From: Bacteroidales bacterium
GTDB lineage: Bacteria; Bacteroidota; Bacteroidia; Bacteroidales; UBA7960
DNA: 64,000 bases
Direction: 5' to 3'
NCBI GenBank assembly: GCA_041686485.1
Contig: JAWLDT010000006.1
Coordinates: forward strand, 1,669-65,668
The translations under genes and the position numbers were made by a program. Shown one piece after another: positions 2,597 through 32,442 of this stretch; positions within the stretch are counted from its first letter, which is position 1; every line of letters starts with the position of its first letter. Under the pieces are notes generated by a model, which was not told the origin of the DNA, searched no databases, and was given only the letters and a program-made list of their open reading frames with translations.

Positions 2597-3925
2597 TTAG
2601 CTGTCTTTGTGCCAGTATTTATCGACTAACTCTTGTTTGATACCCACTTCTTCGGGTCTGAAGTAGTCTTTAAACAGCTCATAAGCTGTTTCAAGCATGC
2701 TATCGGTGTCGATGTTGACATCCACAGCCAGCAATTTCTCGGAATAGCCTTTCGCAAACTCCAGTGTTCGTTCGTCGTAATCGGTAAGGTCGAAGCCGTT
2801 TTCCTGTTTGGTTTTGGCGTTAGCGGCGTCGGCAAACAGGCGGACGGCAGCGTTCATGACCTGTGGGTGGTCTTCGCGGGTTTTCTTTCCGATAACGAGC
2901 TGCTTCAGACGCGACAGGCTCCGGAAGGGGTCAACGATCACTTTCCCGATGTCGCTGTCCTTACGCAGGAATAGCTGACCTTCGGTGATATATCCGGTGT
3001 TGTCGGGCACGGCATGTGTAATATCGCCGCCTGACAGGGTTGTTACTGCGATAATCGTGATGGAGCCGCCGTCCGGGAACTGAACGGCTTTTTCATACAG
3101 TCGTGCCAGGTCTGAGTAGAGAGAGCCGGGCATACTGTCTTTGGAAGGAATCTGGTCCATCCTGTTTGACACGATACTCAGGGCATCTGCGTAGAGTGTC
3201 ATGTCGGTGAGCAGCACCAGCACTTTTTCGTTCTTTTCGACAGCAAAATATTCTGCAGCCGAAAGAGCCATATCGGGTACCAGCAGCCTTTCGACGGGCG
3301 GGTCTTCGGTGGTGTTGATGAATCCTACGATACGATCGAGCGTGCCGGCGTTGTCAAAGACGTTCTTGAAGTACAGGTAGTCGTCACGCGTGAGTCCCAT
3401 ACCTGCCAGGATGATCTTGTCGGCTTTAGCGCGCAGCGCCACATTGGCCATGACCTGGTTATACGGCTGGTCGGGGTCTGCAAAGAAAGGGATCTTCTGG
3501 CCTGTCACCAGCGCGTTGTTCAGGTCAATGCCCGCGATACCCGTCGGAATGAACTCCGAAGGTTGCATCCTTCGTACCGGATTCACACTCGGACCACCAA
3601 TCTCCAACTCTTCACCCATGATCTCACCGCCTTCCATGGGCTCGCCATAGGCATTGAAAAAGCGACCTCCAAGATCTTCCCCGACTTTCAGGGTCGGGGC
3701 TTTTCCGGCAAATATTACCTCGGCATTCGTGGCGATCCCTTCGGTACCGCCAAAGATCTGCAGGGTGACCAGATCGCCTATGATCTTCACCACCTGGGCC
3801 AGCCGTCCATCTACGATAGCAAGCTCATCATTGCCCACGTCCTTTGCATACAGGGAAACAGTGGCCTTGGTAAGCTGAAACAGCTTGGTGTATACACGTT
3901 GAAATGCTTTTGTTTCCTTTTCCAT
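2597..3925 (-). CDS. atpB: V-type ATP synthase subunit B
   Basis: 442 aa, recognisable non-catalytic B-subunit sequence (…GQKIPFFADPDQPYNQVMANVALRAKADKIILAGMGLT…SMPGSLYSDLARLYEKA…). Confidence 0.95.
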   Translation of the reverse strand: MEKETKAFQRVYTKLFQLTKATVSLYAKDVGNDELAIVDGRLAQVVKIIGDLVTLQIFGGTEGIATNAEVIFAGKAPTLKVGEDLGGRFFNAYGEPMEGGEIMGEELEIGGPSVNPVRRMQPSEFIPTGIAGIDLNNALVTGQKIPFFADPDQPYNQVMANVALRAKADKIILAGMGLTRDDYLYFKNVFDNAGTLDRIVGFINTTEDPPVERLLVPDMALSAAEYFAVEKNEKVLVLLTDMTLYADALSIVSNRMDQIPSKDSMPGSLYSDLARLYEKAVQFPDGGSITIIAVTTLSGGDITHAVPDNTGYITEGQLFLRKDSDIGKVIVDPFRSLSRLKQLVIGKKTREDHPQVMNAAVRLFADAANAKTKQENGFDLTDYDERTLEFAKGYSEKLLAVDVNIDTDSMLETAYELFKDYFRPEEVGIKQELVDKYWHKDS

Positions 3926-3953: not shown

Positions 3954-5759
3954 TTATGCCTTTGCTTCCTCTTTGTCTTTTTTATCCTTCTCTTTGCCAG
4001 CTTCTTCATTAAGCTTCTCCTGAACGATCTTTTCCATTTCTTTTTCGTTCGCTTTGAATTTGTCGGACTCAAATTCGGCGAAGTTCATCTGTTTCAAGGC
4101 ATTGATAATGCGTTTATAATATGGACCCACGTCTTCGAAGGAATCAAATGTAAAATCCAACGCTGTTATCTCGAGGGTCTTCTGAAGCATGTAGTTTTGC
4201 CTGTTGAGTGAGGTGGAGGCGTCGATGGCATCAAAAGCATCCTGCTGCAGGATGACGAAGTCGATCAGTTCTGATCTCCAGAACCTGATGTGGTAGTCTA
4301 TCGGTACGCCGTCGTCACCAAGGATATTGATCTGCTCGTAGGCCTCCTTTCCTCTGAGCAAGAGCTCCTTGGCATGGAACACATTCTTTGTCCATGACTC
4401 ATGGATATTTTCGTTGAGGTATTCCTCAATTTCCGGGTACTCAAGGTATTTGGAGTAGCTGTCTATCGGGTCGATGGCTGGGTAGCGCTTGCTGTCGGCA
4501 CGTTGCTGTGACAATGCATAGAAACAGCGTGCCACTTTCTTGGTGGACTCTGTGACGGGTTCTTTCAGGTTACCGCCGGCCGGCGATACGGTTCCGACAA
4601 AGGTGATGGAGCCGGTTTTGCCATTGGGCAGATAAACATAGCCTGCACGGGCATAAAAGTTAGCAATGATGGCCGACAGGTCCATGGGGAACCCGTCAGG
4701 TCCGGGAAGTTCTTCCATGCGGTTTGACATCTCACGAAGTGCCTGCGCCCAGCGTGACGTAGAGTCGGCCAGCAGCAGTACCTTAAGACCCATGGCCCGG
4801 TAATATTCGGCAAGGGTCATGGCGGTATATACAGAAGCTTCCCTGGCAGCTACGGGCATGTTGGAGGTGTTGGCGATGATGGTCGTACGCTCCATGAGCT
4901 TACGTCCTGTCCGTGGGTCTTCCAGCTCAGGAAACTCAGTGAAGATCTCAACTACCTCGTTGGCCCGCTCACCGCAGGCAGCAACAATCACCAGGTCGGC
5001 ATTGGCATTTTTCGACAGGTTATGCTGCAATACCGTTTTGCCTGAACCAAACGGCCCCGGGATAAATCCTGAACCACCTTCCGCCATGGGATTCAACGTA
5101 TCCATCACACGGATACCGGTCTCCATAATTTTAAACGGCCGTGGTTTTTCTTTATAGGCTTTGATGGGAACCTTTACCGGCCATTTCTGTACCATGGTCA
5201 CATCATGATCCTTGCCTTCTTTGTCGGTCAGGACTGCGATGGTATCATTGAGATTGTACGAACCATCTTTACTGATACTTTTTACGGTGTATTCACCCTG
5301 GAAGGTAAAGGGCACCATGATCTTGTGGGGGATCCAGTTTTCCTTCACTTCGCCAAGCCACATCCCGGCTGTGACTTTGTCGTCCTTTTTGGCAATGGCT
5401 TTGAAGTCATACTTCTGTTCAAAATCCAAAGGATCCGTATATTGTCCCCTCTTCAGAAACACACCCTCCATCTTGTTCAGGTCGTTTTGCAGACCGTCGA
5501 AGTTTTTTGACAGGATACCGGGTCCGAGCGTGACCTCCAGCATGTGTCCCATGAACTCCACCTTGGTGCCAATCTTCAGACCCCTGGTGCTTTCAAAGAC
5601 CTGAATATAGGATTTGTTACCAACCACCTTGATTACCTCCGCCATCAGCGGGGTGTCACCGTGTTTGATATAACAGATCTCATTCTGTGCGGTCGTTCCC
5701 TCTGTTTCAACAATGACAAGGTTGGCGATAATGCCGGTTACATTCCCAATTGTATTCAT
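3954..5759 (-). CDS. atpA: V-type ATP synthase catalytic subunit A
   Basis: 601 aa with Walker A GPFGSGKT and typical A-subunit motifs (ACGERANEV, STSRWAQALREMS). It ends in a K/E-rich tail. Confidence 0.95.
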   Translation of the reverse strand: MNTIGNVTGIIANLVIVETEGTTAQNEICYIKHGDTPLMAEVIKVVGNKSYIQVFESTRGLKIGTKVEFMGHMLEVTLGPGILSKNFDGLQNDLNKMEGVFLKRGQYTDPLDFEQKYDFKAIAKKDDKVTAGMWLGEVKENWIPHKIMVPFTFQGEYTVKSISKDGSYNLNDTIAVLTDKEGKDHDVTMVQKWPVKVPIKAYKEKPRPFKIMETGIRVMDTLNPMAEGGSGFIPGPFGSGKTVLQHNLSKNANADLVIVAACGERANEVVEIFTEFPELEDPRTGRKLMERTTIIANTSNMPVAAREASVYTAMTLAEYYRAMGLKVLLLADSTSRWAQALREMSNRMEELPGPDGFPMDLSAIIANFYARAGYVYLPNGKTGSITFVGTVSPAGGNLKEPVTESTKKVARCFYALSQQRADSKRYPAIDPIDSYSKYLEYPEIEEYLNENIHESWTKNVFHAKELLLRGKEAYEQINILGDDGVPIDYHIRFWRSELIDFVILQQDAFDAIDASTSLNRQNYMLQKTLEITALDFTFDSFEDVGPYYKRIINALKQMNFAEFESDKFKANEKEMEKIVQEKLNEEAGKEKDKKDKEEAKA

Positions 5760-5765
5760 AATAGG

Positions 5766-6596
5766 TTATTTTTCAGTAAATTTTTCAGGTAATTCGTAGT
5801 TCGCCTGCAGCTCCTTCAGCAGCTTTTTGAACATTTCATTGCTGTGTTCTTTGTCGATCGACAGCCAGCGCTCAATCCTGCCAAGCTTTATTGTGAAAGC
5901 CAGGATCTTTTCAATGGTAAAATAATGGAAGAAAGTCTCCTCATCAAGGTATTTCCACTTGAACTCATCGATGGCTTTTTCCCGCTCTTTAACGTCCTCC
6001 TTGCGCGAAATGGCGCTGAGCGTCTCCATATAATCGAGTTCACTGCTCAGTCCAAAATCCCTGGCCTGACTTTTTCGGATTGTCTCAGAAATATAATCTG
6101 TGCCTATAATATAATGCTCATAAGGGACTTTGTACTTCCTGGCATTCAGCGCTGTCATAATATTTTTAATGTTCAGCTCAAACTGAAACCAGTTGCGGAG
6201 GAAATCATTCCTTTCGTTTTCGAGAATATAGTCGTAGAATAGGGTGGCAAGCTCATCCTCCGGGTTCATGTTCGGGAATAGGGGCTCACTGTTTTGATAA
6301 GCCGTAATGAAGCGCAGCATGTATTCAGGAAGGTCGGCAGGCTCCTTGATATTTTCTTCCAACCGCTCTCGTGAGAAATTGCCCTTTTCATGCAGGTCTT
6401 TTTCTTTTTTCTCCAAAAGGATCAGCAGGTTTTGATTGTCATGTGGCAGAAACAGCTTTTCCACCAGCTTATAGTCGTTCGGGTGTAAATCCGAACACAG
6501 CTCATCCCGGAAGGCAAGCTGGTTCGACACCAGCTTATGCGTGTCCAGGGCAATGTCCTGAAGTCCTGCTACCAGATAATAATAATTACGCTTCAC
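5766..6596 (-). CDS. DUF2764-family protein of Bacteroidota V-ATPase operons (possible subunit C equivalent)
   Basis: 276-aa soluble protein occupying the slot between E and A, as in other Bacteroidota V-ATPase operons. The family assignment is by recognition only. Confidence 0.65.
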   Translation of the reverse strand: MKRNYYYLVAGLQDIALDTHKLVSNQLAFRDELCSDLHPNDYKLVEKLFLPHDNQNLLILLEKKEKDLHEKGNFSRERLEENIKEPADLPEYMLRFITAYQNSEPLFPNMNPEDELATLFYDYILENERNDFLRNWFQFELNIKNIMTALNARKYKVPYEHYIIGTDYISETIRKSQARDFGLSSELDYMETLSAISRKEDVKEREKAIDEFKWKYLDEETFFHYFTIEKILAFTIKLGRIERWLSIDKEHSNEMFKKLLKELQANYELPEKFTEK

Positions 6597-7358: not shown

Positions 7359-7500
7359 AGAAAATAAAGCTGTATACTGTAGATTTTCTGTTATTTATGT
7401 TTTGAATAATACATGCTCGGTATGATGTCAACTTCAAAGATTGTTAACTTTAAAACGTAGCAAATATATTAAACTTATTTTTTGTTACAAAATTAACAAC

Positions 7501-7751
7501 TCAAAAAGTAATCCTGTTTTTGACATAAAGCTGTCTTGTTTCTATGAAACTACCTGTTTTCTCCCTGACGCCTGAACATGGAACAGCACATAGGGTTACC
7601 GGAATGAGGATCAGGGTTATAAGGGTTGAAGCCAGCAAACCGCCGATGATGGTAATGCCTGAAGGGTTATACAATATAGTCCCATACCCGTACTAAGTGC
7701 CATGGGGCGCAAGTCAGGCATGGTGGTGGTAACCAACATCCTGACATGGTT
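7501..7751 (-). pseudogene. Remnant of the C-terminus of an RND (AcrB/CzcA-type) efflux permease, frameshifted and 5'-truncated
   Basis: Minus strand, frame ending at stop 7501-7503, reads …NPSGITIIGGLLASTLITLILIPVTL…. A second frame upstream (7751 to about 7680) reads …VRMLVTTTMPDLRPMALSTGMG…. Joined, these resemble the last TM helices of RND pumps (…LPLAL.TG.G…P.GI.VIGGL..ST.LTL…PV). There is no start codon and the fragment abuts the stop of the 4Fe-4S gene. Confidence 0.5.
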
Positions 7752-7757
7752 TTACAA

Positions 7758-9341
7758 TCAGAATGGAAAATCGTCGCTGTCGTCCTCTCTGGGGCCGTTG
7801 GTTTCTTCGATTGGTGTTGCTTTTGTATGTACCGGCAGTCCATCCACATAAATGGCTTTATATGGTGTTGTGGGGCAGGCATACTCACAAGCGCCGCAAC
7901 CGACACATAGTTCGGGCGTGATCTCCGGTATGAACAGTCCGTCATCGTATGGAACCATTTGCACGGCCTTTGTGGGGCAGTGTTCTGAACATGCTCCACA
8001 GTCGGTACGGTCCACCATCACAATACAGCTTTCTACCTGGAAGTGTACCTCGCCCATTTTAATCAGTTTCTTGTCTTCGATGCTTTGGCTGGTAATAGCC
8101 CCTGTCGGACATACCTTGGTGCAGTCATTACAATCGTAATTGCAATAATTCTTGTGAAAGTCCAGCTTCGGTTGCATAAAACCGTCCAGGCCAAAGTCGA
8201 AGAATGCTGGTACGATTACTTTGCTGGGACAGGCTCCTACACAACGGTAGCAAGCAATGCAATGTGACGTGAAATGTTCATGGCTTATTGAGCCGGGCGG
8301 TGATACCGGCCTCTGGGTGTCAATGGGGATCATGCCCGGTTCACTTCTGCCTTGTGCCTTGATGGGTTTTTTCAAGAGGGGAAGACTTACTATACCACCT
8401 GCGAGGCCAAGCAGGAAATGACGTCTTTTGTTTCCATTCTCCGCTTTCGGTGTGTTGTTTTGCTTTTCTGAAGCTGCATAAGCATTGGTATAGTATAGTC
8501 CCTGATTCGGACAGGCTGTAAAGCAGTTAAAACAGCTAATGCAACGACTATGGTCCACTTCTTTGGTTTTGCTGTCCAGGCATTCTGCCTTGCATACCCA
8601 TTCACACCGTTTGCAAAAGGTACAGGCTTCATCCCGGAAACGTATTCTGTATAAAGACCTGGACGACACCAGCCCCAAAATGCTTCCCACCGGGCATAAG
8701 GTATTGCAGAACAGCCGGCCGCGCCAGGCAGCCATCGTGGTTATAGCCAGGAATATGATGCCGGAAATCAGCAACACATCCCCCGGCAAGGTGTGCATGG
8801 TTTGGGGTGTCAGGACATGCACATCCATATTTTCCAGGGTAAAGGCCAGGGTATTATTCAACCATATATAAGCAGGCTGAAACAGGCTGGTGGATAATTT
8901 GCCAAAATTGGAGAACGGGTCTAACAGGTTGATAAATAACATGCTGCCGAAAAACCAAAAAATAATGGTAGCGGCTAATATGCCGTATCGCAGGATGTTC
9001 TTCCGGTTAGAAGTATAATGAAAACGGCGACCCTTTTTGGATTTAAAAAGTCGTGCAATGGCAATCACCATATCCTGAAACGTGCCCAGCGGACAGATAG
9101 AAGAGCAATACACCCGCCCGAAAAGCCAGGTCAAAATTAAAACCAAAACAAAGCCAAGTGCGGTGATCGAGAAGAATAATGCCATGAACCGCAACAGAGA
9201 AGGGAAAAATTGTAATCGCAATAACCCTTCTCCCAATGTATGTAAGGGCTTTATTCCGATACCCAGAAAAATAAATAATAAAGCAATGAAAAATAACAGG
9301 GATACGATAATCCTGATCTTTCGCAGGTGGTATAGCTTCAT
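7758..9341 (-). CDS. Membrane-bound polyferredoxin: NapH-like N-terminal half fused to a NapG-like C-terminal half (4Fe-4S binding protein)
   Basis: 527 aa. The N-terminus has TM helices plus GRVYCSSICPLG and GRLFCNTLCPVG motifs and two CxxCxxCxxxC(P) clusters. Mid-protein there is a KRRHFLLGLAGG segment. The C-terminal half carries four further Cys clusters (CIACYRCVGACP, CNDCTKVCP, CGACSEHCP, CVGCGACEYACP). Confidence 0.8.
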   Translation of the reverse strand: MKLYHLRKIRIIVSLLFFIALLFIFLGIGIKPLHTLGEGLLRLQFFPSLLRFMALFFSITALGFVLVLILTWLFGRVYCSSICPLGTFQDMVIAIARLFKSKKGRRFHYTSNRKNILRYGILAATIIFWFFGSMLFINLLDPFSNFGKLSTSLFQPAYIWLNNTLAFTLENMDVHVLTPQTMHTLPGDVLLISGIIFLAITTMAAWRGRLFCNTLCPVGSILGLVSSRSLYRIRFRDEACTFCKRCEWVCKAECLDSKTKEVDHSRCISCFNCFTACPNQGLYYTNAYAASEKQNNTPKAENGNKRRHFLLGLAGGIVSLPLLKKPIKAQGRSEPGMIPIDTQRPVSPPGSISHEHFTSHCIACYRCVGACPSKVIVPAFFDFGLDGFMQPKLDFHKNYCNYDCNDCTKVCPTGAITSQSIEDKKLIKMGEVHFQVESCIVMVDRTDCGACSEHCPTKAVQMVPYDDGLFIPEITPELCVGCGACEYACPTTPYKAIYVDGLPVHTKATPIEETNGPREDDSDDFPF

Positions 9342-9408
9342 CTGTTTATGTTTACGTTACTCTTTGTAATTCAATGTTATATGACTCTGTACCTTTATCC
9401 AGGCAAAA

Positions 9409-9444
9409 GGTAGAAGGTAGAAGTTAGAAGGTAGAAGGTAGAAG
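9409..9444. repeat. Heptamer tandem array GGTAGAA x5 (third unit GTTAGAA)
   Basis: Direct reading: ggtagaa ggtagaa gttagaa ggtagaa ggtagaa g. It lies 68-103 nt upstream of the ATG (9341) of the minus-strand 4Fe-4S gene. Confidence 0.95.
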
Positions 9445-9515
9445 ACTTTAACTATAAGCTTCCTTTCTTTAAGCCCTGAGACTTCTTTGTCTAACCTCTA
9501 TCTTCTACCATCTAA

Positions 9516-9552
9516 TCTCTTCCTTCCAGCTTCCAGCTTCCAGCTTCGAGCT
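9516..9552. repeat. Left copy of a perfect 37-bp direct repeat (contains CTTCCAG x3 + CTTCGAG)
   Basis: tctcttccttccagcttccagcttccagcttcgagct is identical to 9908-9944. Confidence 0.95.
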
Positions 9553-9557
9553 TTTTT

Positions 9558-9585
9558 CACCGTTCACTGTTCACCGTTCACTGTT
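9558..9585. repeat. Heptamer tandem array CACYGTT x4 (14-bp unit x2)
   Basis: caccgtt cactgtt caccgtt cactgtt, read directly. Confidence 0.95.
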
Positions 9586-9588
9586 CTG

Positions 9589-9616
9589 TGACAGGTCAAG
9601 CCCTGTCATTACGGTA
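9589..9616. repeat. Hairpin module A: TGACAGG-TCAAGC-CCTGTCA + TTACGGTA
   Basis: 7-bp perfect stem with a 6-nt loop. The 28-nt module recurs at 9824-9851 with a compensatory change in the loop-closing pair. Confidence 0.9.
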
Positions 9617-9634
9617 CGCAGCCCAAGTGCTGCG
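9617..9634. other. Hairpin CGCAGC-CCAAGT-GCTGCG
   Basis: 6-bp perfect stem with a hexaloop of the shared YCAAGY type. Confidence 0.8.
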
Positions 9635-9661
9635 GCTACCACTGCTTCATTTTTATAACTG

Positions 9662-9685
9662 GCAGGCCGGCCAAGTCCGGCCTGC
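9662..9685. other. Hairpin GCAGGCCGG-CCAAGT-CCGGCCTGC
   Basis: 9-bp perfect GC-rich stem with a YCAAGY hexaloop. Confidence 0.85.
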
Positions 9686-9694
9686 AACTGAATT

Positions 9695-9780
9695 GAACCC
9701 TTTCAGGGTTCTCGTTTTCCGGGCGTTTCTTATACCCGAATTGCATTCGGGGCTATTCATATTTAATCCCTTCGGGATTA
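9695..9780. other. Three short hairpins with 7-bp stems and 3-nt loops
   Basis: gaaccct-ttc-agggttc (9695-9711), cccgaat-tgc-attcggg (9735-9751) and taatccc-ttc-gggatta (9764-9780). Confidence 0.75.
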
Positions 9781-9823
9781 GTGCCGAGCAGTTTCCTATC
9801 TTCAGCTCCCAGCTCACGGGTTC

Positions 9824-9851
9824 TGACAGCTCAAGCGCTGTCATTACGGTA
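9824..9851. repeat. Hairpin module B: TGACAGC-TCAAGC-GCTGTCA + TTACGGTA
   Basis: Identical to module A except for G..C becoming C..G at the pair closing the loop. Confidence 0.9.
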
Positions 9852-9873
9852 GCTCCCCGAGGGGAAATGGTTG

Positions 9874-9893
9874 AGGCTGGTCAAGCCCGGCCT
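9874..9893. other. Hairpin AGGCTGG-TCAAGC-CCGGCCT
   Basis: 7-bp stem including one G-T (G-U) wobble, with a TCAAGC loop. Confidence 0.7.
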
Positions 9894-9907
9894 ACACATG
9901 TATCAGC

Positions 9908-9944
9908 TCTCTTCCTTCCAGCTTCCAGCTTCCAGCTTCGAGCT
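9908..9944. repeat. Right copy of the perfect 37-bp direct repeat
   Basis: Identical to 9516-9552. It ends 18 nt before the stop codon of the DUF362 gene. Confidence 0.95.
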
Positions 9945-9961
9945 CTTTTCTTCTTCCTTCC

Positions 9962-10897
9962 CTACAACGCTACCCTCCGGATATTCAGCTGATCCAGCTG
10001 CATGTTTCCGACCCCTTTCTCGGCGCCAATGCGGATGTGCCCGATATCTCCGGGCTGGTGTTCCAGTAACATGGAAGAGGCGGCATCCGCGGCAATGATG
10101 TCTTCCGATACGATCAGACTGCGCATCCTTGTGAGGTCTGACGTGGAGGTGCCCTTAGGCCCGTTTTGGGTCATCACCAGGTAGGCATCAACAATATTGA
10201 GATCCGGCTTTTTCCACAGGCAAAAATCGGCAATACACTGATGCAGGTCGTTGCGATGCCAGTACCCCCGGTCCCAAACCAGCCCCATGAGGTTTTTCAT
10301 GCCTATGGTGACGGTGGTGGAGCCGTGGTGTTTTAAAACGGGAATGTTGATAAACACATCACCTTCGAGTAGCTTTTCATGAACCTTTACATTCTTTAAC
10401 CGCTCGGCTCCGGGAATAGAAACCTCTGTGAAATACCGCTCAAGGTGGGCATGCAGCATTTGCCCGCCGGCGTTCTCGACTGCCTCTTTCACACCGCTGT
10501 TGGTATAGCTTCTTTCCCAATTGTCGCAGGTATGGTCGAAAGCGTATACCCGCCTTGCGCCGGCATCCAGACAATCCTTTACAATAGCTGCCATAAGGTC
10601 AGGATTGGTATTTGCGGCCCTTTCGGGTGAGGTGTCCCAGCTTGCATTGGGCTTTAAGACCACAGTTTGTCCGGGCTTTACATAGGTGCCAATGCCACCC
10701 ATCTCAGCCATGGCCCGCTGATACAACTCTACCGGCTCACCATTACGCACGGCTACCAGGTCATAGTTGCCACGGGACTCTGCCTTTTTTTCGGCAGCAA
10801 ACAATGGTATTCTGCCTATCGTAGAGGCGTACAGGCTGCTCAGGGCAGAAAAAACAACCCCCTTTTGAAGAAATTCCCTTCTGTTCATATCCCACAT
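9962..10897 (-). CDS. Tat-signal DUF362 domain protein
   Basis: The ORF-track start at 10921 is TTG. The first ATG is at 10897 (MWDMNRREFLQKG…) and gives a twin-arginine-type signal (RREFL followed by a hydrophobic stretch). The body has DUF362-like motifs (GQTVVLKPNASWD, INIPVLKHHG). ATG 10888 is an alternative start. Confidence 0.75.
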   Translation of the reverse strand: MWDMNRREFLQKGVVFSALSSLYASTIGRIPLFAAEKKAESRGNYDLVAVRNGEPVELYQRAMAEMGGIGTYVKPGQTVVLKPNASWDTSPERAANTNPDLMAAIVKDCLDAGARRVYAFDHTCDNWERSYTNSGVKEAVENAGGQMLHAHLERYFTEVSIPGAERLKNVKVHEKLLEGDVFINIPVLKHHGSTTVTIGMKNLMGLVWDRGYWHRNDLHQCIADFCLWKKPDLNIVDAYLVMTQNGPKGTSTSDLTRMRSLIVSEDIIAADAASSMLLEHQPGDIGHIRIGAEKGVGNMQLDQLNIRRVAL

Positions 10898-10899
10898 TT

Positions 10900-10923
10900 T
10901 TTTGCATAAGTTCTTATGCAAAA
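10900..10923. promoter_or_regulatory. Perfect 11-bp inverted repeat TTTTGCATAAG-tt-CTTATGCAAAA
   Basis: Read directly. It sits 3-26 nt upstream of the first ATG (10897) of the DUF362 gene, in the divergent spacer. Confidence 0.5.
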
Positions 10924-11068
10924 TTAAAATTTAACGCATCATTTTTGTATTTTTGGGGTTCTTAATGAGATGAAACAGGTTATTTATACTCATTTTAAGT
11001 AAACAAAACCCCGGAAACCAGATCGGGTAAACAGGTTGAAAAATAATTAACCAATTGACAATCAGATT

Positions 11069-11602
11069 ATGAGTCAGACCAGAGCCATTAGTTTTCCTGC
11101 CAGCACCAATCTTCGGGCGATCCTGTTTGATGTATTTGCATTGGCCTTTATTTATCTTGTACCCACCATTTCTCACATGTTAAGCATCAAATTGTACCTG
11201 CTTGAACCCATGCGCCTGATGCTTGTTCTGGCAATGGTGCATACGCGGCGGCAGAATGCATACATACTGGCGTTTACCATGCCGTTTTTCTCATTCTTGA
11301 TTTCCGCACATCCCCTGCTGGTCAAAGCCCTGCTTATTGCCATTGAGCTTGTGGTGATGGTTTTTGTGTTCTATCAGCTGGAAAAGCGTTTGCATACTTT
11401 TGTGGCCATATTTTCCGCCATTTTGGTCAGCAAAATGCTTTATTATGGGATGAAGTATGTTGCGGTTATTACTGTCCTGCCAGCAGAACCACTTGTAGGA
11501 ACACCTTTGCAATTGCAGGTTCTGACATCCCTGGCATTTAGCCTGTATCTGTTTCTTGTATTTGGAAAGTCCAGCTTATCAGGATCAGGCGGGACAAGCT
11601 GA
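11069..11602 (+). CDS. Hypothetical integral membrane protein (about 5 TM helices)
   Basis: 177 aa, strongly hydrophobic with regularly spaced TM-like segments. I recognise no family. Confidence 0.55.
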   Translation: MSQTRAISFPASTNLRAILFDVFALAFIYLVPTISHMLSIKLYLLEPMRLMLVLAMVHTRRQNAYILAFTMPFFSFLISAHPLLVKALLIAIELVVMVFVFYQLEKRLHTFVAIFSAILVSKMLYYGMKYVAVITVLPAEPLVGTPLQLQVLTSLAFSLYLFLVFGKSSLSGSGGTS

Positions 11603-11648
11603 TAGTTTGCCCGGTGTGATTTTTGGTCTTTCCTGTTTGCCATTTTTT

Positions 11649-11656
11649 TACCTTTG
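11649..11656 (+). promoter_or_regulatory. -7 promoter box TACCTTTG
   Basis: Matches TAnnTTTG, with only 5 nt before ATG 11662. Confidence 0.45.
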
Positions 11657-11661
11657 CCGCC

Positions 11662-12237
11662 ATGATTATTCTTGGTGATACTGTATTATCAGATGAGCTG
11701 TACGAGGAGCAGTTTGTTTGCGACCTTCCTGTTTGTAAGGGAGGATGTTGTATAGAAGGAGATGCCGGAGCTCCCCTAACTAAAGAAGAAACGTTTATCC
11801 TGGAGGAGATATCCGGACGTGTCCTGCCTTTTATGATTGGTGACGGTGTACAGGCAGTTAACGATCAGGGCTATTGGGTCAAAGATGACGACGGTGACCT
11901 GACCACCCCACTGGTAGACGGGAAGCAGTGTGCTTACGTCTTTTATGATTCCGGCAGGATAGCCAAATGTGCCATAGAGCGTGCATTTGAAGAGGGACTG
12001 GTTGATTTTCAAAAACCAATTTCCTGTCACCTGTTTCCCATCCGAATTACAAAATATCCCCATTACGAGGCACTGAACTACTTCCGCTGGCACTTGTGTG
12101 ACTGTGCCCGCCTGAAAGGGCAAAAAAAGAAGGTAAGGGTTTATCGTTTCCTGAAGGAGCCGCTCATCCGCAGGTATGGTAAGGAGTGGTATGAAGAGCT
12201 GGAAGCTTACATTCATTACACCTATGAATCAGCATAG
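11662..12237 (+). CDS. DUF3109-family cysteine-rich protein
   Basis: MIILGDTVLSDELYEEQFVCDLPVCKGGCCIEGDAGAPL… matches the N-terminal pattern I recall for DUF3109. The start is moved from 11623 to ATG 11662 because a promoter box lies inside the longer ORF. Confidence 0.7.
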   Translation: MIILGDTVLSDELYEEQFVCDLPVCKGGCCIEGDAGAPLTKEETFILEEISGRVLPFMIGDGVQAVNDQGYWVKDDDGDLTTPLVDGKQCAYVFYDSGRIAKCAIERAFEEGLVDFQKPISCHLFPIRITKYPHYEALNYFRWHLCDCARLKGQKKKVRVYRFLKEPLIRRYGKEWYEELEAYIHYTYESA

Positions 12238-12310
12238 CATGCCCTGCCTGCGTCGGATGTAGCCGGAAAGTGCTTCAACCCTCAAAAAATACCGGATCAA
12301 TGAGAGGCTC

Positions 12311-13834
12311 TTACCTGGACAGGGTTTGTATTGCCTGCTCAATTCGTTGTATCACCTCGTCTTTGCCAAGAATTTCCATGATTGCTTTTACGTCCGGACC
12401 TTTTCCTGCACCCACCAGTGCAAGCCGCAGACCGGGCATGATTTTGCCGGCACCGATATCGTACTCTTCCATGAACGCATGTAATGTGACTTCGATGTTT
12501 TCCGTGGTGAACGAATCGACCGAGCGAAGCTTTTCTGCCAGGGCCTGGAGCAGTTCTGGTGTTTCTTCCTTCCATTTCTTTTTGGCAAACTTTTCATCAT
12601 AGGCCACGGGTCTTTCAAAAAAGAAAGCGGCTTGATCCCACAATTCGCTGGTAAAGTTAACCCGTTCGCGAACCAGGTCGGTGATTTTTTCCATGGTTCC
12701 TTCGTCGGGCTGGTATCCCTTCTTCTGTATTTGTTGCATGAAATCGGCCGCTATTTCTTCGTTCGGTTTTTGCTGCAGGTACTGATGGTTAAACCACCTT
12801 GCTTTTTCGGGATCAAAGCGGGCGCCGGCCTTACCGACCTTATCCAGGGAAAATGCATCAATCAGTTCTTCAAGAGAAAATATTTCCTGCTCGGTGCCGG
12901 GGTTCCAGCCAAGGAGCGCCAGGATGTTTATGAAAGCTTCGGGGAAATATCCTTCTTCCTTATAGCCTGGCGAAACTTCACCGGTAACAGGATCTTTCCA
13001 TTCGAGCGGGAACACCGGGAATCCGAGACGGTCGCCATCACGTTTGCTTAGCTTTCCATTCCCATCGGGCTTAAGCAACAGGGGCAAATGGGCAAATGCC
13101 GGCATCTGATTTTCCCAGCCAAGTACCCGGTACAATAAAACATGCAGGGGTGCTGAGGGTAGCCACTCTTCTCCGCGAATTACATGGGTGATATGCATCA
13201 GATGGTCATCCACCACGTTGGCCAGATGGTAGGTGGGCATGCCGTCGCTTTTGAACAACACTTTGTCATCAAGCTGGTCGGTGTTGACCGTTACCTTACC
13301 GCGTATCAGGTCATTTACGATCACTTCCTCGTTTTCCGGCGTTCTGAGTCTTACCACATAAGGCTCACCGGCATCAAGTTTTTGTTGTACCGTATCTTCC
13401 GAAAGGGTCAGGGCATTTTTCATCGACAATCGTGTCTGGCTGTCGTACTGCGGGTTGCCTGATTTGGTTTCCTTAAGCCTGTCACGCATAGCTTCAAGCT
13501 CTTCGGGTGTGTCAAAAGCGTAATAGGCATGGCCCTGATCGATAAGCTGCATCACGTGATCTTTATACAGATCTTTTCTGTTCGACTGGCGATAAGGCCC
13601 GTCAGGACCACCTTTGTCAGGTCCTTCGTCCCATAAGATGCCACACCACTTCAGGGCATCCATGATGTATTTTTCAGCTCCGGGTACAAAACGTGTCTGA
13701 TCGGTATCCTCGATACGCAATAAAAACTGACCACCATGTTTACGGGCATAAAGATAGTTGTACAGGGCTGTCCGGACACCGCCCATATGCAAGGGGCCGG
13801 TGGGACTTGGTGCAAATCTGACGCGAACACTCAT
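12311..13834 (-). CDS. gltX: Glutamate--tRNA ligase
   Basis: 507 aa. It has the class I HIGH-type motif (PSPTGPLHMGGVRTALYNY) and a KMSKS-type motif (KLSKRDG). Confidence 0.95.
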   Translation of the reverse strand: MSVRVRFAPSPTGPLHMGGVRTALYNYLYARKHGGQFLLRIEDTDQTRFVPGAEKYIMDALKWCGILWDEGPDKGGPDGPYRQSNRKDLYKDHVMQLIDQGHAYYAFDTPEELEAMRDRLKETKSGNPQYDSQTRLSMKNALTLSEDTVQQKLDAGEPYVVRLRTPENEEVIVNDLIRGKVTVNTDQLDDKVLFKSDGMPTYHLANVVDDHLMHITHVIRGEEWLPSAPLHVLLYRVLGWENQMPAFAHLPLLLKPDGNGKLSKRDGDRLGFPVFPLEWKDPVTGEVSPGYKEEGYFPEAFINILALLGWNPGTEQEIFSLEELIDAFSLDKVGKAGARFDPEKARWFNHQYLQQKPNEEIAADFMQQIQKKGYQPDEGTMEKITDLVRERVNFTSELWDQAAFFFERPVAYDEKFAKKKWKEETPELLQALAEKLRSVDSFTTENIEVTLHAFMEEYDIGAGKIMPGLRLALVGAGKGPDVKAIMEILGKDEVIQRIEQAIQTLSR

Positions 13835-13893
13835 AATAATATGTATATTAATTGTAATAAAGACCCATACGGTCTGTATAGTATGTTGTTTGT

Positions 13894-15444
13894 CTAATCT
13901 GAAATTATCGGTTTGTGGTGTTGACGGAGGTATGATTCCCAGTCATGCAGGGTTTGGTTTCGGACGACACGCGGAAATTTGTTTTGTGCGCCTTCCTTGC
14001 CTTTCATCTTCAACCAGCCATAGAATGCCTGAGATGGAAGCACATGAACGAAAACGTCTTTGATGGCGGCTATGCGTTCCACCCGGTAATCATCGTTCAG
14101 TATCTTCATATTATCGTCAATCTGCTTTTTCAGGGCATTGGGGTCGATATCATCATCGGTTCCGATAAACCACTTGTGGGCAAACATGCGGCCATATTTG
14201 ATTCCTGTGACGGAAAACTCCCTGATTACAATATTGAGCTTTTCTTCGGCCATCTTGATGGCTTTATTCATATTTTCGATAGACATATGCTCGCCGCAGA
14301 GATTCAAAAAATGCTTCGTACGGCCGGTAATGATGATTTCACTACGCTTTTTATCGGCGATCCTGACCACATCACCGATCAGGTAGCGCCATGCACCGGC
14401 ACATGTGCTTAGAAGCAAGGCATAGTCATGGCCTTCTTCAACTTCTTCAATGGTGAGGGCCTCCGGATTTTGCTGCAACTGGCCTTCCGCATCAAAATTG
14501 TTATCATCGAAAGGAATGAACTCCATAAATAATCCGTTATCCAGCGAAAGTTGCATGTTCTCAGTATCAGGCCGGCCCTGGAAAGCGATGAAACCCTCAG
14601 AAGCGAGGTATGTCTCGATATAGGTCAGTGGTTTCCCGAGTAGCTCCTCAAATCCTTTTTTGTAGGGCCCGAAAGAGACCCCTCCATGGACAAAAATAGA
14701 CAGATTCGGCCATATCTCATGGATGTTATTCAACTTATAATGATTAATGATTTTTTCCAGCAGTATTTGCCACCAGGCTGGAACACCGACCATCACACCA
14801 ATATCCCAGTCTTTGGCTTTGGCCACAATTTCGTCAAGCTTGGTTGGCCAGTCACGCTCTTTGGATATGCGTTTCCCCGGTTTGTAGAAATGCTGAAACC
14901 AGAAAGGGATGTTTTTGGTCGTGATGCCTGAAAGATCGCCTTCGAAATAGGTGCCGTTATATTGAAGGTGTGTGCTGCCACCCAACATCAGTATGCCTTT
15001 TTCATAAAAGGACCTCGGGAAGTTATACCTTGCCAGTGAGAAGATCTGTTTGACGCTGGTTTTTTTGATGGCGCGGAGCATGGTGGCTGTCACGGGAATG
15101 TGTTTACTGGAAGCTTCGGACGTCCCGGAGCTGAGGGCGAAGTATTTTACCTTTCCCGGCCAGCAGACATAAGGCTCTCCGTTTAAAGTTCGGTACCACC
15201 AATCCTTGAAAATGGAATTGTAGTCGTGGATGGGAATGCGCTCCTGGAAACTACGGATGATATCTTCGCTTTGCAAAATTTCGGTAAATCTATAATGTTC
15301 CCCAAAAGCGGTATTGGCTGCCCGCCTGAGTAACTTTTTCAACTCACGTTTTTGGGCTTTGCCAGGATTTTTAGTGTGCATGATAACAGGCATTCTGCTT
15401 CTCAGCTCGATGGCCCGCTTAATGATGGAACCTAATATTGGCAT
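13894..15444 (-). CDS. GH3 (auxin-responsive promoter) family adenylating enzyme homologue
   Basis: 516 aa. The length and sequence pattern (…FALSSGTSEASSKHIPVT…) are typical of the bacterial GH3 family common in Bacteroidota. Confidence 0.75.
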   Translation of the reverse strand: MPILGSIIKRAIELRSRMPVIMHTKNPGKAQKRELKKLLRRAANTAFGEHYRFTEILQSEDIIRSFQERIPIHDYNSIFKDWWYRTLNGEPYVCWPGKVKYFALSSGTSEASSKHIPVTATMLRAIKKTSVKQIFSLARYNFPRSFYEKGILMLGGSTHLQYNGTYFEGDLSGITTKNIPFWFQHFYKPGKRISKERDWPTKLDEIVAKAKDWDIGVMVGVPAWWQILLEKIINHYKLNNIHEIWPNLSIFVHGGVSFGPYKKGFEELLGKPLTYIETYLASEGFIAFQGRPDTENMQLSLDNGLFMEFIPFDDNNFDAEGQLQQNPEALTIEEVEEGHDYALLLSTCAGAWRYLIGDVVRIADKKRSEIIITGRTKHFLNLCGEHMSIENMNKAIKMAEEKLNIVIREFSVTGIKYGRMFAHKWFIGTDDDIDPNALKKQIDDNMKILNDDYRVERIAAIKDVFVHVLPSQAFYGWLKMKGKEGAQNKFPRVVRNQTLHDWESYLRQHHKPIISD

Positions 15445-15504
15445 GTTGACTGTTTTGGTAGATACACAGAATCTTCACGTTCATTCATAAATGTACAAAA
15501 TTTC

Positions 15505-17244
15505 TCACGAGTCATTATGGTTTCCACCAATCCAGGCTTTAACCTCTTCGGGTTTTGGGGCGGGGATATCCAGTTTCTTTTTCTTCCTGAGTCCGCAAAG
15601 CTGATTAAACACCTTATTGAGGTTGGCTTCCCTTAGTGTGCTGAGGTCATGATAACCCGCTTCGGGTAGCAACTGTGCCCAGGTTTCGGGAATGCCGGCC
15701 TGTATAAACGCTTCAGTGCCGCTGGTGGTCGTCGATGATTGTTCGGGTCGCATCTGCGGGAAGAACAAAACGTCCTGAATGCTATCGGCATTGGTAAGGA
15801 TCATTGCCAGTCTGTCGATACCTATCCCCAGGCCTGCTGTGGGTGGCATGCCTGTTTCAATGGCTTTTAAAAAGTCTTCATCAAGGATCATGGCTTCAGG
15901 ATCTCCGCGTCGCTCCAATTCGAGCTGTTCTTCAAAGCGCTGACGTTGATCTACAGGGTCATTCAGCTCACTGAAGGCATTGCTTATCTCTTTGCCATTG
16001 CAGATGGCCTCAAAACGTTCGACCAGACCCGGTTCACTCCGGTGTTTCTTCGCCAGCGGCGACATTTCTATGGGGTAATCGGTAATGAAGGTAGGCTGGA
16101 TAAGATTGGGCTCGCATTTCTCTCCGAAGATCTCATCGATAAGCTTGCCACGGCCCATGCTGTCATCTGTTTCTATCCCGATGCTGCTGGCAAAGGCGCG
16201 TATCTCAGCTTCATCCATCGCTGAGACATCCGTACCGGTGAAATGGGCGATAGCTTCGTACATGGTATAACGTTTCCAGGGACGCCGGAAGTCGATGGTG
16301 TTGTCACCTACGCGGACGCTGGTCTGTCCATGCATGTCGGTAACGATCTTCTCCATCATCTCTTCCACCAGCGTCATCATCCATTCATAATCCTTGTAAG
16401 CGACATAAAGCTCCATCTGGGTGAACTCCGGATTATGGAAACGACTCATACCTTCGTTGCGGAAGTCTTTGGCAAACTCAAATACGCCCTCATAACCTCC
16501 CACTATCAATCGCTTCAGGTACAGCTCGTTGGCAATACGCAGATAAAGGGTTGTGTCGAGTTTATTATGATAGGTTTTGAATGGCCTGGCGGCTGCTCCG
16601 CCGTATATGGGCTGCAGCACAGGTGTTTCAACCTCAAGGTAGCCTGCTTTAAGCAGATAGTCGCGCATGCTTTGGATCAGGCGTGCGCGCTGCCGGAATA
16701 TTTCCTTGTTCCCGGGGTTTACGATGAGGTCAAGATAACGTTGACGATAGCGTTGTTCAGGGTCTGTAAACGCATCATACACCTTGCCATCTTTTTCTTT
16801 TACCACGGGCAGCGGGCGTAATGATTTGCAAAGGATTTTGAATTCCTTGACATGAACGGTGGTTTCACCCATTTTGGTGGTAAACACAAACCCCTTCACG
16901 CCAATGATATCACCGATGTCGATCAGGCGTTTGAAGACGGTATTATACATGGTTTTATCCTCGCCCGGACAAATCTCATCGCGATTGAAATACAGCTGTA
17001 TACGTCCGCTTTCGTCCTGCAGCTCTGCAAAAGAGGCGCTGCCCATGATCCGGCGGCCCATCACCCTGCCGGCGATTTGAATAGTTTGGAAGAGGCTGTT
17101 GTCTTCCGGAAACTGTTCTTTGATTTTCCGGGCTGTGGCTGTAATATCAAATGTTTCAGAAGGGTAGGGGTCAATACCCAAATCCCGCAGCTGCTGAAGC
17201 GCCTGCCTCCGTATCTGTTCCTGTTCGCTTATTCGTTGATCCAT
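15505..17244 (-). CDS. lysS: Lysine--tRNA ligase (class II) with a C-terminal extension
   Basis: Class II LysRS motifs are present ([34 protein letters not shown]). The start is set at ATG 17244 ([10 protein letters not shown]…) because a TAnnTTTG box at 17270-17277 lies inside the longer ORF (to 17307). Confidence 0.9.
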
Positions 17245-23946: not shown

Positions 23947-24281
23947 TTAAAGTATTCTAACCTGATTTATTCATGATTTTAGTGAAACTTTCCTGCTTGT
24001 GCGGTAATGAAATCCGGCGCATTAGCATATTTTGTGAATAAGACAGGCTAAAACCATTGTTTTTTTGTATGGAATGTTCATACATGCATGGGTAACCATT
24101 GTTCCGGGATTCCATGCATACTCTTTGGTCTCGCGTGTGCAGTAAAGATTTTTTCAGATGCGATTGATGCAGCCTTAGGTGGCTTGCGTTCTTTTGTATA
24201 CCATTGGAAGGCAAATATAGAAATTTTACCAAACAATCTGTTTTACAGGTTGTTTTTTTAATAAACCAAACACTTATAGTT

Positions 24282-24869
24282 ATGAAAATATGTAATAGAT
24301 TTTATTTAATGGGATGCAGCTTATTTATTCTATTCGCGATGTTGATGATAAATCCTTTGCAGGCTATGGAAAACAATGGCGAAACTGCCGGAAGTCTTCA
24401 TGATTTTGTGGTTCAGGACATCTATGGCGATTCTTTTGAGCTGTCGGATTTATCAGGGAAGAAGGTGATGGTTGTAAACACCGCATCTGAATGTGGCCTG
24501 ACACCGCAGTATGAGGAGCTTGAACAGCTCTACCAAAAGTATGGCGGCGATGGTTTCGTGATTATCGGCTTCCCGGCCAACAATTTTATGAATCAGGAGC
24601 CCGGTTCGGATGAAGAAATTATCACCTTTTGCCAGGAGAACTATGGAGTTAGTTTTCCTATGATGTCGAAGATCTCTGTGAAAGGTGACGATATTGCCCC
24701 TGTTTATGAGTGGCTTACCCGTGAGGAACTAAATGGTAAGATGGATGCAGAGATTGCCTGGAATTTTCAGAAATTCCTGATTGACGCCGACGGGCAGATA
24801 GTCGATGTGTTATCCCCCCGCGATAGCCCATTGTCATCAGAGGTGACCGACTGGATCACAGAGAAGTAA
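24282..24869 (+). CDS. Glutathione peroxidase (Cys-type), secreted or periplasmic
   Basis: GPx motifs are present (VMVVNTASECGLTPQYEELEQLY, WNFQKFLID). The start is set at ATG 24282 (MKICNRFYLMGCSLFILFAMLMINPLQA), which gives a signal peptide. Confidence 0.85.
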   Translation: MKICNRFYLMGCSLFILFAMLMINPLQAMENNGETAGSLHDFVVQDIYGDSFELSDLSGKKVMVVNTASECGLTPQYEELEQLYQKYGGDGFVIIGFPANNFMNQEPGSDEEIITFCQENYGVSFPMMSKISVKGDDIAPVYEWLTREELNGKMDAEIAWNFQKFLIDADGQIVDVLSPRDSPLSSEVTDWITEK

Positions 24870-24870
24870 C

Positions 24871-25055
24871 AGGTCAGAGATTACCGACCGGATCACAAAG
24901 AAATAACAGGTCAGAAATTACCGACCGGATCACAGAGAAATAACAGGTCAGAAATTACCGACCGGATCACAAAGAAATAACAGGTCAGAGATTACCGACC
25001 GGATCACAGAGAAGTAACAGGTCAGAAATTACCGACCGGATCAAAGAGAAGTAAC
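24871..25055. repeat. Tandem repeat, 37-bp unit x5 (AGGTCAGARATTACCGACCGGATCAMAGAGAARTAAC)
   Basis: Units are at 24871, 24908, 24945, 24982 and 25019, with a few A/G and A/C variants. A degenerate 30-bp proto-unit (24841-24870) forms the last 9 codons plus the stop of gpx. A 3-nt start of a sixth unit follows. The array fills the gap between the convergent gpx and gyrB genes. Confidence 0.95.
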
Positions 25056-25074
25056 AGGCGCTGCAGAGAATCCT

Positions 25075-32028: not shown

Positions 32029-32055
32029 CAGCTATTTATATGAGGAATAAAAAAT

Positions 32056-32442
32056 GAGTAGGCAGGCCTGTAAGCCGGGTTCTGTGACACCTTTCAAAGC
32101 TGCCTCTTGTCATTTATCTGGAATAGTACTCACGTACTACTTCTAACGGCCTACCCTCCGGGATCGGGCGAGCAACCCTCAGTCCCCGGTTTATTTGGCC
32201 TTTCAACGCATAAGGTTTACCCCCTTATCCGGTCACCCGGATAAGGCGTGAGCTCTTACCTCACGTTTTCACCCTTACCGGCCCGGCCGAAGCCGGACGC
32301 CGGCGGTTCTTTTCTGCGGCACTTTCTCTCAACCTGCAATCGCAGGCTGGCTTCCTGTTAGGAAGTATGCTGCTCTGTGTTGCCCGGACTTTCCTCATCC
32401 CGCTCCTGTGACCGGGACGCGACAAGACGGCCTGCCTGACTC
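32056..32442 (-). ncRNA. rnpB: RNase P RNA (bacterial type A)
   Basis: The reverse strand contains the universal motifs GAGGAAAGTCCGGGC (P4 5' side) and ACAGAACCCGGCTTA (P4 3' side), plus GGTAAGGGTGAAA…GGTAAGAGC. The termini pair as P1 (GAGTCAGGCAGGCC / GGCCTGCCTACTC). The ends are approximate, within a few nt. Confidence 0.9.

Follow-up and report, generated by a model that had tools for sequence, protein, structure and literature searches.

The repeat structure described here lies in a 64,000-nt stretch of DNA from a Bacteroidales bacterium of a soda-lake lineage (assembly GCA_041686485.1, contig JAWLDT010000006.1, positions 1,669 to 65,668 of the forward strand; called the window below), in the spacer between a gene with a DUF362 domain and the gene for a membrane polyferredoxin. 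The spacer contains two perfect copies of a 37-mer. In our opinion these are probably two arrays of a dispersed heptanucleotide repeat family which form part of a mosaic spacer resembling the bacterial interspersed mosaic elements (BIMEs), and local duplication or conversion would explain why they are identical.

The 37-mer pair and its heptamer family

The 37-mer, TCTCTTCCTTCCAGCTTCCAGCTTCCAGCTTCGAGCT, is present exactly at 9516-9552 and at 9908-9944, as a preliminary description of the locus had stated, and nowhere else in the window; a scan of the window allowing up to 3 mismatches gave no further match, and shuffled sequences gave none (n=100). The copies enclose 355 bp (9553-9907), and since both flanking genes are on the minus strand the pair sits in a 620-bp spacer between co-directional genes. 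The point which had been missed is the period-7 structure. Read on the gene strand each copy is AGCTCGAAGCTGGAAGCTGGAAGCTGGAAGGAAGAGA, i.e. (GCTCGAA)(GCTGGAA)3 followed by GGAAGAGA, and Tandem Repeats Finder (TRF) reports both copies with period 7, 4.3-4.4 units and 95% matches, the plus-strand reading being (CTTCCAG)4.3. The features of the locus are as follows.

7758-9341, minus strand: gene for a membrane polyferredoxin (Fer4_5 and several 4Fe-4S domains; Pfam), the downstream member of the pair
9342-9961, minus strand: spacer of dispersed short repeats, 620 bp (spacer lengths in relatives; RNA fold z-score -7.1)
9407-9444, minus strand: (CTACCTT)5 heptamer array, AAGGTAG on the plus strand (TRF; inverted repeat I1)
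9407-9539, no strand assigned: long imperfect inverted repeat, arms of 39 nt, 74% complementary and 55 nt apart, also a predicted stem
9447-9556, minus strand: module of ~110 nt, array plus ATTAGATGGTAGAAGATAGAGGTTAGAC... tail, 82% identical over 111 nt to L002:11556-11662
9516-9552, minus strand: copy 1 of the 37-mer, the same heptamer array as copy 2 (exact match; TRF)
9556-9586, minus strand: (GTGAACR)4 heptamer array, (TTCACYG)4 on the plus strand, called the CACYGTT array in the preliminary description (TRF)
9589-9608, minus strand: hairpin resembling a repetitive extragenic palindrome (REP), TGACAGG GCTTGA CCTGTCA, with GTAA before it
9612-9686, minus strand: hairpin doublet, 91% identical over 76 nt to L002:11337-11411 and 89% identical to L080
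9617-9634, minus strand: doublet hairpin GTAGC-CGCAGC ACTTGG GCTGCG
9662-9685, minus strand: doublet hairpin GCAGGCCGG ACTTGG CCGGCCTGC
9695-9711, 9735-9751 and 9763-9781, minus strand: three small GC-rich hairpins with 3-nt loops, CCC-GAA-GGG type
9824-9843, minus strand: REP-like hairpin TGACAGC GCTTGA GCTGTCA, with GTAA before it
9874-9893, minus strand: REP-like hairpin GTAG-GCCGG GCTTGA CCAGC, with a C-A mismatch which is a G-T wobble on the plus strand
9908-9944, minus strand: copy 2 of the 37-mer, starting 17 nt past the DUF362 stop codon
9962-10921, minus strand: DUF362 gene (Pfam PF04015, E=3e-49), the upstream member of the pair

A 23-nt core of the 37-mer, AGCTCGAAGCTGGAAGCTGGAAG, was scanned against one genome per GTDB species and was found in at least 95 stretches of species representatives. 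Among the matches listed most are in Bacteroidota metagenome-assembled genomes (MAGs) from soda-lake or saline sediments, including several 'CSSed' Bacteroidales, and the matches often lie at contig ends. Contigs with the core number at least 11 in the sister species CAYMDX, at least 8 in the Sphingobacteriia MAG JBEPXC and at least 17 in CAZQOG, a MAG labelled Desulfohalobiaceae with 60-64% GC; the array also turns up singly in the intergenic DNA of Vicinamibacterales, Anaerolineae, Pirellulales, Oceanisphaera and Billgrantia. The CAYMDX arrays typically start from a few to ~130 nt past a stop codon, or lie in 5' regions, and their neighbours are small hairpins and heptamer arrays of other types, namely GTGAACR, GTGAAAA and TTAGACA. 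Of 15 arrays between co-directional genes 13 are sense and 2 antisense, according to crude calls of open reading frames (ORFs). The number of units varies between loci and species, and the species of the window has a further array at L002:11556-11585 (loci used for comparison are denoted by L and a number). GTGAACR is a second dispersed heptamer family, with longer arrays at L002:11120-11273, L084, L018, L098 and L188. Of 815 tandem-repeat rows in the window and 101 compared loci 309 have period 7, and these fall into many heptamer classes.

None of the 94 full-length family arrays from other genomes is identical to the 37-mer (two have 1 mismatch, five have 2), so the similarity of the two local copies exceeds what is average in the family. 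The similarity continues beyond the 37-mer to 43 nt with one mismatch in the window, and because position 9945 is A and not G in the assemblies L001 (GCA_041685385.1) and L183 (GCA_046482945.1) the copies are identical over all 43 nt there; the difference looks like gene conversion. The claim of the preliminary description that perfect identity in non-coding DNA implies a recent duplication or ongoing homogenisation is thus supported; the observations fit local duplication and/or gene conversion and need no insertion.

The two copies are found in all three assemblies which span the spacer, namely the window, L001 and L183. L001 covers the entire spacer with 3 substitutions and no indel, and one of the substitutions, at 9424, removes the sole irregular unit of the CTACCTT array; L183 (contig 2) covers the part from the DUF362 gene down to window position 9425, has 4 substitutions and likewise keeps the two copies. 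Over 14.2 kb the window and L001 differ at 8 positions, 3 of them in the 620-bp spacer. The single-copy (empty-site) allele which the preliminary description proposed to look for in related strains was not found in these three assemblies, which are ~99.9% identical and make up a narrow population sample, and a metagenome scan with the DUF362 protein gave no strain-level alleles, the nearest relatives being only 74% identical, though it brought to light the short ancestral junction. The presence of two copies everywhere, here in the three assemblies, and the commonness of the motif, here of its 23-nt core, are what the preliminary description had itself set against its readings of the pair as an insertion scar or a switch, and both essentially hold.

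Two arrangements in other genomes involve the same heptamers. The CAZQOG and CAZUBS MAGs (L009, L013, L030 and L050; 60-64% GC) contain a dispersed intergenic element of ~90-100 nt, gcaggccgttgaaaaatccccgctgg...cacgtaaattgaagctgga, whose 3' end is the 23-nt core; it often starts directly past a stop codon, and some copies have a GTAG-tagged small hairpin. In L008, L027, L030, L041, L042 and L054, from distant genomes, a GCTGGAA-type array is followed 50-150 nt on by its reverse complement (CTTCCAGC-type), and such pairs would fold into a long imperfect hairpin like that at 9407-9539 in the window.

Hairpins and the second composite locus

The bracketed segment had been described as holding the CACYGTT array and all hairpins with a YCAAGY loop, and this holds: five hairpins with such a hexaloop (RCTTGR on the gene strand) are found between the 37-mers, at 9588-9609, 9617-9634, 9662-9685, 9824-9843 and 9874-9893, and none elsewhere in the window. 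They have stems of 6-9 bp and a 6-nt loop, and are preceded by the tags GTAG (two), GTAA (two) and GTTG (one). The doublet at 9612-9686 is kept as one unit at other loci, and there is an internal duplication within the 355 bp, 9589-9616 being 93% identical to 9824-9851 over 28 nt.

Sixteen hairpin instances from 6 genomes could be aligned without gaps. The tag (columns 5-8: G in 14 of 16, T in all 16, A in 12 and G in 4, G in 10) stands directly 5' of a 7-bp stem, and the loop is R-CTTG-R, its ends being only G...A or A...G. The stems are of the types GACAGS, CGCAGC and GGCCGG; 95.5% of the stem cells are paired and 5 of the 7 pairs have changed on both sides, a count which is partly circular because the instances were picked as hairpins. 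The anatomy is that of the GTAG-tagged REPs (PMC3733652, PMC2817692). The suggestion that the YCAAGY/RCTTGR hairpins form an abundant genome-wide family was not borne out across the loci compared.

The composite recurs at a second locus, L002:11255-11705, which lies ~1.5 kb past the left edge of the window between the genes for a lycopene cyclase and a fatty-acid desaturase. Its modules are, in order, a degenerate GCTGGAA array, GAGCTGATACMTGTG, a hairpin with a GGCCGG stem and one with a CGCAGC stem, both with the RCTTGR loop on the gene strand, then CCC-GAA-GGG hairpins, a GCTCGAA(GCTGGAA)2 array and a ATTAGAWGGTAGAAGATAGAGGTTAG tail with ~60 similar bases. The order array, hairpins, array, tail is thus the same as in the spacer of the window, and the matching blocks have 84% identity over 55 nt, 91% over 76 nt and 82% over 111 nt, the last being the module at 9447-9556, which is common to the spacer and this locus upstream of the desaturase gene. 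Since the composite recurs, the two 37-mer arrays are parts of a repeated composite and not site-specific scars.

For the spacer RNA a strong structure is predicted (z = -7.1 on the gene strand). The inverted repeat at 9407-9539 connects the CTACCTT array with the tail and the array belonging to copy 1; in the long hairpin predicted there, the CTACCTT array has the 3' part of copy 1 as its partner. Small hairpins of the CCC-GAA-GGG type have similar ones in the spacers of L002, L047, L098 and L105. An Rfam search of the window at gathering thresholds found no family in the spacer, and a permissive Rfam search of 9250-10050 gave sub-threshold miRNA-like matches only, spurious ones which the long imperfect hairpin produces. 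A hidden gene in the spacer was considered and rejected; the ORFs at 9588-9992 (plus), 9653-9844 (minus) and 9871-10098 (plus) have no Pfam match.

Related hairpins were seen in further genomes. L089:3300-4100 (Sphingobacteriia MAG JBEPXC) has two tandem copies of a ~460-nt composite beside a GCTCGAA/GCTGGAA array, and the composite holds a GTAG-GACAGG-GCTTGA-CCTGTC hairpin and further GC-rich hairpins. L080 has on its reverse strand (500-760) a tandem repeat aaatgacaaggcgaagccttaaatgacgcgaagcaaatgacggcgtctagcgcc, broken by a masked run of N, in the same spacer as its hairpin doublet. The Acidobacteriota MAG L059 gave weak matches to the hairpin model at 3094-3155, 5323-5384 and 5912-5973, paired on opposite strands ~30 nt apart; these resemble an unrelated family of inverted REP doublets.

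Proposed growth of the spacer and the alternative explanations

The DUF362-polyferredoxin gene pair is kept in relatives down to ~50% protein identity, and the gap is 14-20 nt in L102, L103, L111, L114, L115 and L116, so all 620 bp of the spacer represent repeat DNA acquired by accretion. Some soda-lake relatives with ~70% protein identity have expanded spacers of their own, with different heptamer arrays or with the same hairpins: L107 has 294 nt with AAGGTTA-, GTTTGAA- and TTTTGTC-type arrays, L108 has 8-mer arrays, and L105/L104 have 470 nt with the hairpins GTAG-CCGCAGC-ACTTGG-GCTGCGG and GGAACAGG-GCTTGA-CCTGTCC. In the sister species CAYMDX the contig L023 is 90-92% identical in nucleotides to window 9915-16495; the 47 nt past the DUF362 stop codon, array included, are identical to those of the window, and the contig ends inside the array. 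The identity of the 47 nt is weak evidence for selection because the last 50 coding nt of DUF362 are equally unchanged.

Two contigs leave the locus within arrays. In the sister lineage L188, the polyferredoxin of which is 95% identical, synteny with the window ends at 9442 inside the CTACCTT array; the genes upstream (L188:1-5815) code for an erythromycin-esterase-like protein and proteins of 429 and 888 aa, DUF362 is absent, and the spacer of 260 nt has the same array families in a different order. The break may reflect a rearrangement at the arrays or else a cross-over made in assembly. L002, the MAG contig JAWOED010000082.1, departs at 9583 in the GTGAACR array and runs into an unrelated gene (L002:1-164). 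This gene and a GTGAACR array form a separate locus in the sister species (L084:78-307; 94.8% identity over 230 nt), and the join in L002 is for this reason most likely a repeat cross-over or a chimeric assembly.

The model which we prefer, that of dispersed arrays in a mosaic spacer, starts from an ancestral junction of ~15 nt which would have grown to 620 bp. The 37-mer, i.e. GCTCGAA, GCTGGAA two or three times and a purine-rich tail on the gene strand, would be a module built into the spacer. The spacer may have grown as modules accreted and were duplicated locally and as their dispersed copies recombined or underwent gene conversion with one another, while replication slippage would create and resize the arrays. 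The perfect match over 37 nt is proposed to be due to conversion between the copies, which would keep them near-identical. As a probable consequence the tight coupling of DUF362 and the polyferredoxin would have been lost, and if the two genes are co-transcribed the intercistronic RNA would carry a block of stable predicted hairpins. By analogy with the REPs and BIMEs in operons of E. coli, this block could shield the upstream message and lower the expression of the downstream gene or uncouple it.

Several observations weigh against this model. The sequences compared gave no exact 37-mer at any place other than this spacer, and its commonness genome-wide rests on the 23-nt core and on the sister species, not on the full 37-mer in its own genome. 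No array-length polymorphism (indels) was seen in the spacer among the three assemblies, a weak test at ~99.9% identity, and ongoing slippage is for this reason inferred rather than observed. The REP-like hairpins are few; a covariance-model search of the 1.2 Mb compared gave ~22 members in 6 genomes; for REPs more than 100 per genome are typical. All five window hairpins have the same orientation, unlike the alternating hairpins of classical BIMEs. No match to a REP-associated tyrosine transposase (RAYT) was found in the window or the compared loci by tblastn with an approximate E. coli YafM query, which is a weak test. A scan of the spacer found no sigma-70-like promoter and no canonical intrinsic terminator on the gene strand; it is uninformative because the tool was not made for Bacteroidota promoters. 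The same scan gave 2 terminator-like sites on the plus strand against a shuffle mean of 0.5, one at 9695-9711 in the spacer and one at 9323-9345, which overlaps the start of the polyferredoxin gene.

The first alternative postulates that the 392-bp unit, made up of one array and the 355-bp hairpin block, entered a pre-existing module of the type 'array plus tail' as a discrete patch, and that the 37-mers mark the junctions. The patch would have arrived when arrays from different loci recombined ectopically, or with a target-duplicating element. We regard this as unlikely, though it explains some of the data: with one copy and the insert removed a stop codon, an array and a ATTAGATGG tail are left, as at L002:11556-11662, the array-hairpins-array layout is found again at the second locus, and the local copies are unusually alike. 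The L188 break in the arrays and the crossing of L002 between loci via the GTGAACR array would also fit, but both junctions are possibly assembly cross-overs in repeats. Against a patch stand the many loci which have lone arrays and no hairpin block, the missing empty-site allele in the three assemblies, and the internally duplicated and patchy nature of the bracketed block, which fits gradual accretion better than a single insertion. Moreover the segment has no terminal inverted repeats (TIRs) and no gene, and a target duplication of 37 bp would be unusually long.

The same observations bear on the insertion scar or attL/attR-like pair which the preliminary description saw in the 37-mers. As with attachment sites, target-site duplications and miniature inverted-repeat transposable elements (MITEs), a few hundred bp of non-coding DNA lie between two identical direct repeats. 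Unlike in these systems, neither integrase, cargo, TIRs nor an empty site was found: no ORF in the 355 bp matches Pfam and the neighbours are DUF362 and the polyferredoxin, no inverted repeat joins the ends of 9553-9907 (GCTGATACATG... and ...GGTGAAAAA), and the distant relatives lack the whole spacer, not merely the insert. The 37-mer is a low-complexity array present at many unrelated loci, and one copy predates the split from the sister species (~90-92% nucleotide identity), in which an array already follows the DUF362 stop codon. An att site or a target-site duplication is accordingly not supported for the pair. Tandem duplication of a larger unit was also rejected, as the sequences after the two copies are unrelated.

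A second alternative hypothesizes that the arrays and the RCUUGR hairpins are selected cis-acting modules of RNA or single-stranded DNA, located in the 3' untranslated region of DUF362 and the leader of the polyferredoxin gene, and that the identity of the copies reflects function, either as a platform for a protein with a 7-nt periodicity or as a REP-type target of a RAYT-like enzyme. We find it doubtful. The orientation bias of the arrays (13 to 2) and their frequent position 4-130 nt past a stop codon argue for it, as do the z-score of the spacer RNA, the 47 nt unchanged in the sister species and an identical 23-mer in intergenic DNA of distant phyla. The hairpins in the 6 genomes have a fixed loop consensus and 5' tag with covarying stems, and loop positions 1 and 6 covary as well. 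However, the covariation is partly circular, the 47-nt conservation is weak for the reason given above, one of the hairpins has the better pairing when read from the other strand, no Rfam family matches, and the close relatives L107 and L108 carry entirely different heptamers. Most relatives lack the spacer, which means that no function is required at this junction.

It is rather improbable, in our estimation, that the arrays and GTAG-tagged RCUUGR hairpins form an ordered, strand-specific composite which is actively propagated, perhaps by a RAYT-like or other single-stranded DNA enzyme, and exchanged among distantly related soda-lake bacteria. If true, the exchange would span Bacteroidales and Sphingobacteriia of ~47% GC and a lineage of 62% GC, and the heptamer arrays would be mobile or functional rather than debris of slippage and would seed rearrangements like the break at 9442.

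The preliminary description further proposed an on/off switch, in which RecA-mediated recombination or slippage deletes the hairpin block and restores the coupling of DUF362 and the polyferredoxin. A perfect identity of 37 bp exceeds the minimal length for homologous recombination in E. coli, and such a deletion is therefore physically possible; the 392-bp unit could be lost by recombination between the copies at a low spontaneous rate, with no sign of its use as a switch. A programmed or contingency switch is very unlikely. All three spanning assemblies, which come from different samples, have two copies while single nucleotide polymorphisms (SNPs) have accumulated between them; the deletion would be irreversible, and the same arrays occur at loci where such a logic fails to apply. 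Short Logan contigs stop inside arrays (at 9436, 9520, 9546, 9915 and 9922) because k-mer assembly breaks at repeats. It is hardly credible that faulty assembly of repeat-rich DNA created the second 37-mer; contigs do end inside arrays and L002 is joined to an unrelated gene via the GTGAACR array, but two independent assemblies reproduce both copies base for base, save 3-4 SNPs.

As for the neighbouring genes, the DUF362 gene as called codes for 308 aa with a probable start at 10888, and other assemblies have this 308-aa product as well; an exact-protein look-up of the maximal ORF of 319 aa gave no match. The identical polyferredoxin is found in 7 contigs. Downstream of the polyferredoxin gene a 447-bp spacer contains an apparent C-terminal remnant of a resistance-nodulation-division (RND) efflux pump (~7560-7727). 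L188 has at the corresponding place (7405-13730) an intact 6.3-kb operon with genes for TetR, OEP, membrane fusion protein (MFP) and RND, from which it follows that the lineage of the window carries a deletion. Farther away are a class A bacterial RNase P RNA (32055-32438, minus strand, 277 bits), besides which the window has no Rfam family above threshold, and a 37-nt minisatellite at 24846-25058 with 5.8 copies and 93% matches. The unit of the minisatellite repeats the last codons and the stop of a gene of the glutathione-peroxidase family (24204-24869), the 3' end of which is reiterated in tandem between convergent genes.

Relation to known repeats and significance

The elements of this spacer resemble two known classes of repeats. 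The short tandemly repeated repetitive (STRR) sequences of cyanobacteria are one example of intergenic heptanucleotide repeats. Intergenic repeats of 7 nt as such are a known class with an unexplained mechanism of spreading, to which TAACTGA in Beggiatoaceae, Cyanobacteria and some Bacteroidetes belongs (PMC4679880); long simple sequence repeats (SSRs) were treated by Mrazek et al. 2007, as summarised in PMC4679880. The arrays described here resemble the heptanucleotide SSRs in having 7-nt units in short tandem arrays of 2 to ~20 copies, in being intergenic with several heptamers per spacer, often by start or stop codons, and in that the same heptamer is found at many loci and shared by distant lineages. 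They differ in the heptamers, which are GCTSGAA, GTGAACR and CTACCTT, in the recurrent order with GCTCGAA first and a purine-rich GGAAGA tail, and in being linked to REP-like hairpins in ordered composites.

The other class is the GTAG-tagged REPs and BIMEs (PMC3733652, PMC2817692, PMC3479197). A survey from 2013 reported GTAG repeats in Proteobacteria, Cyanobacteria, Chloroflexi and the Planctomycetes-Verrucomicrobia-Chlamydiae (PVC) group, and only CGTC repeats in Bacteroidetes (PMC3733652). The hairpins of the window share with the GTAG REPs the form of GC-rich stem-loops of 24-32 nt with a GT(A/G)G tag directly 5' of the stem, several stem variants with a common tag and loop, and the extragenic location downstream of genes in mosaics with other short motifs; the conserved RCTTGR loop sets them apart from described REPs. 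In the literature that could be searched there was no paper with this repeat sequence or with heptamers ordered with GTAG-tagged hairpins. To judge by this search, the GCTSGAA, GTGAACR and CTACCTT heptamers and their ordered tie to GTAG-tagged hairpins are new; the array class and the REP/BIME-like class were already known.

The locus may serve as a caution: even where a direct repeat of 37 bp in non-coding DNA is perfect, it does not have to be the trace of an insertion or the sign of a switch if it comes from a dispersed low-complexity family. Short repeats can inflate an operon junction of 14-20 nt to 620 bp in one lineage, and they break metagenome assemblies and coincide with breakpoints of synteny. 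The findings extend the GTAG-tagged REP-like hairpins to Bacteroidota and enlarge the class of intergenic heptanucleotide repeats by one new heptamer family. Should the spread of arrays and hairpins prove to be active and strand-specific, the dispersal of heptamers would become a question which can be tested.

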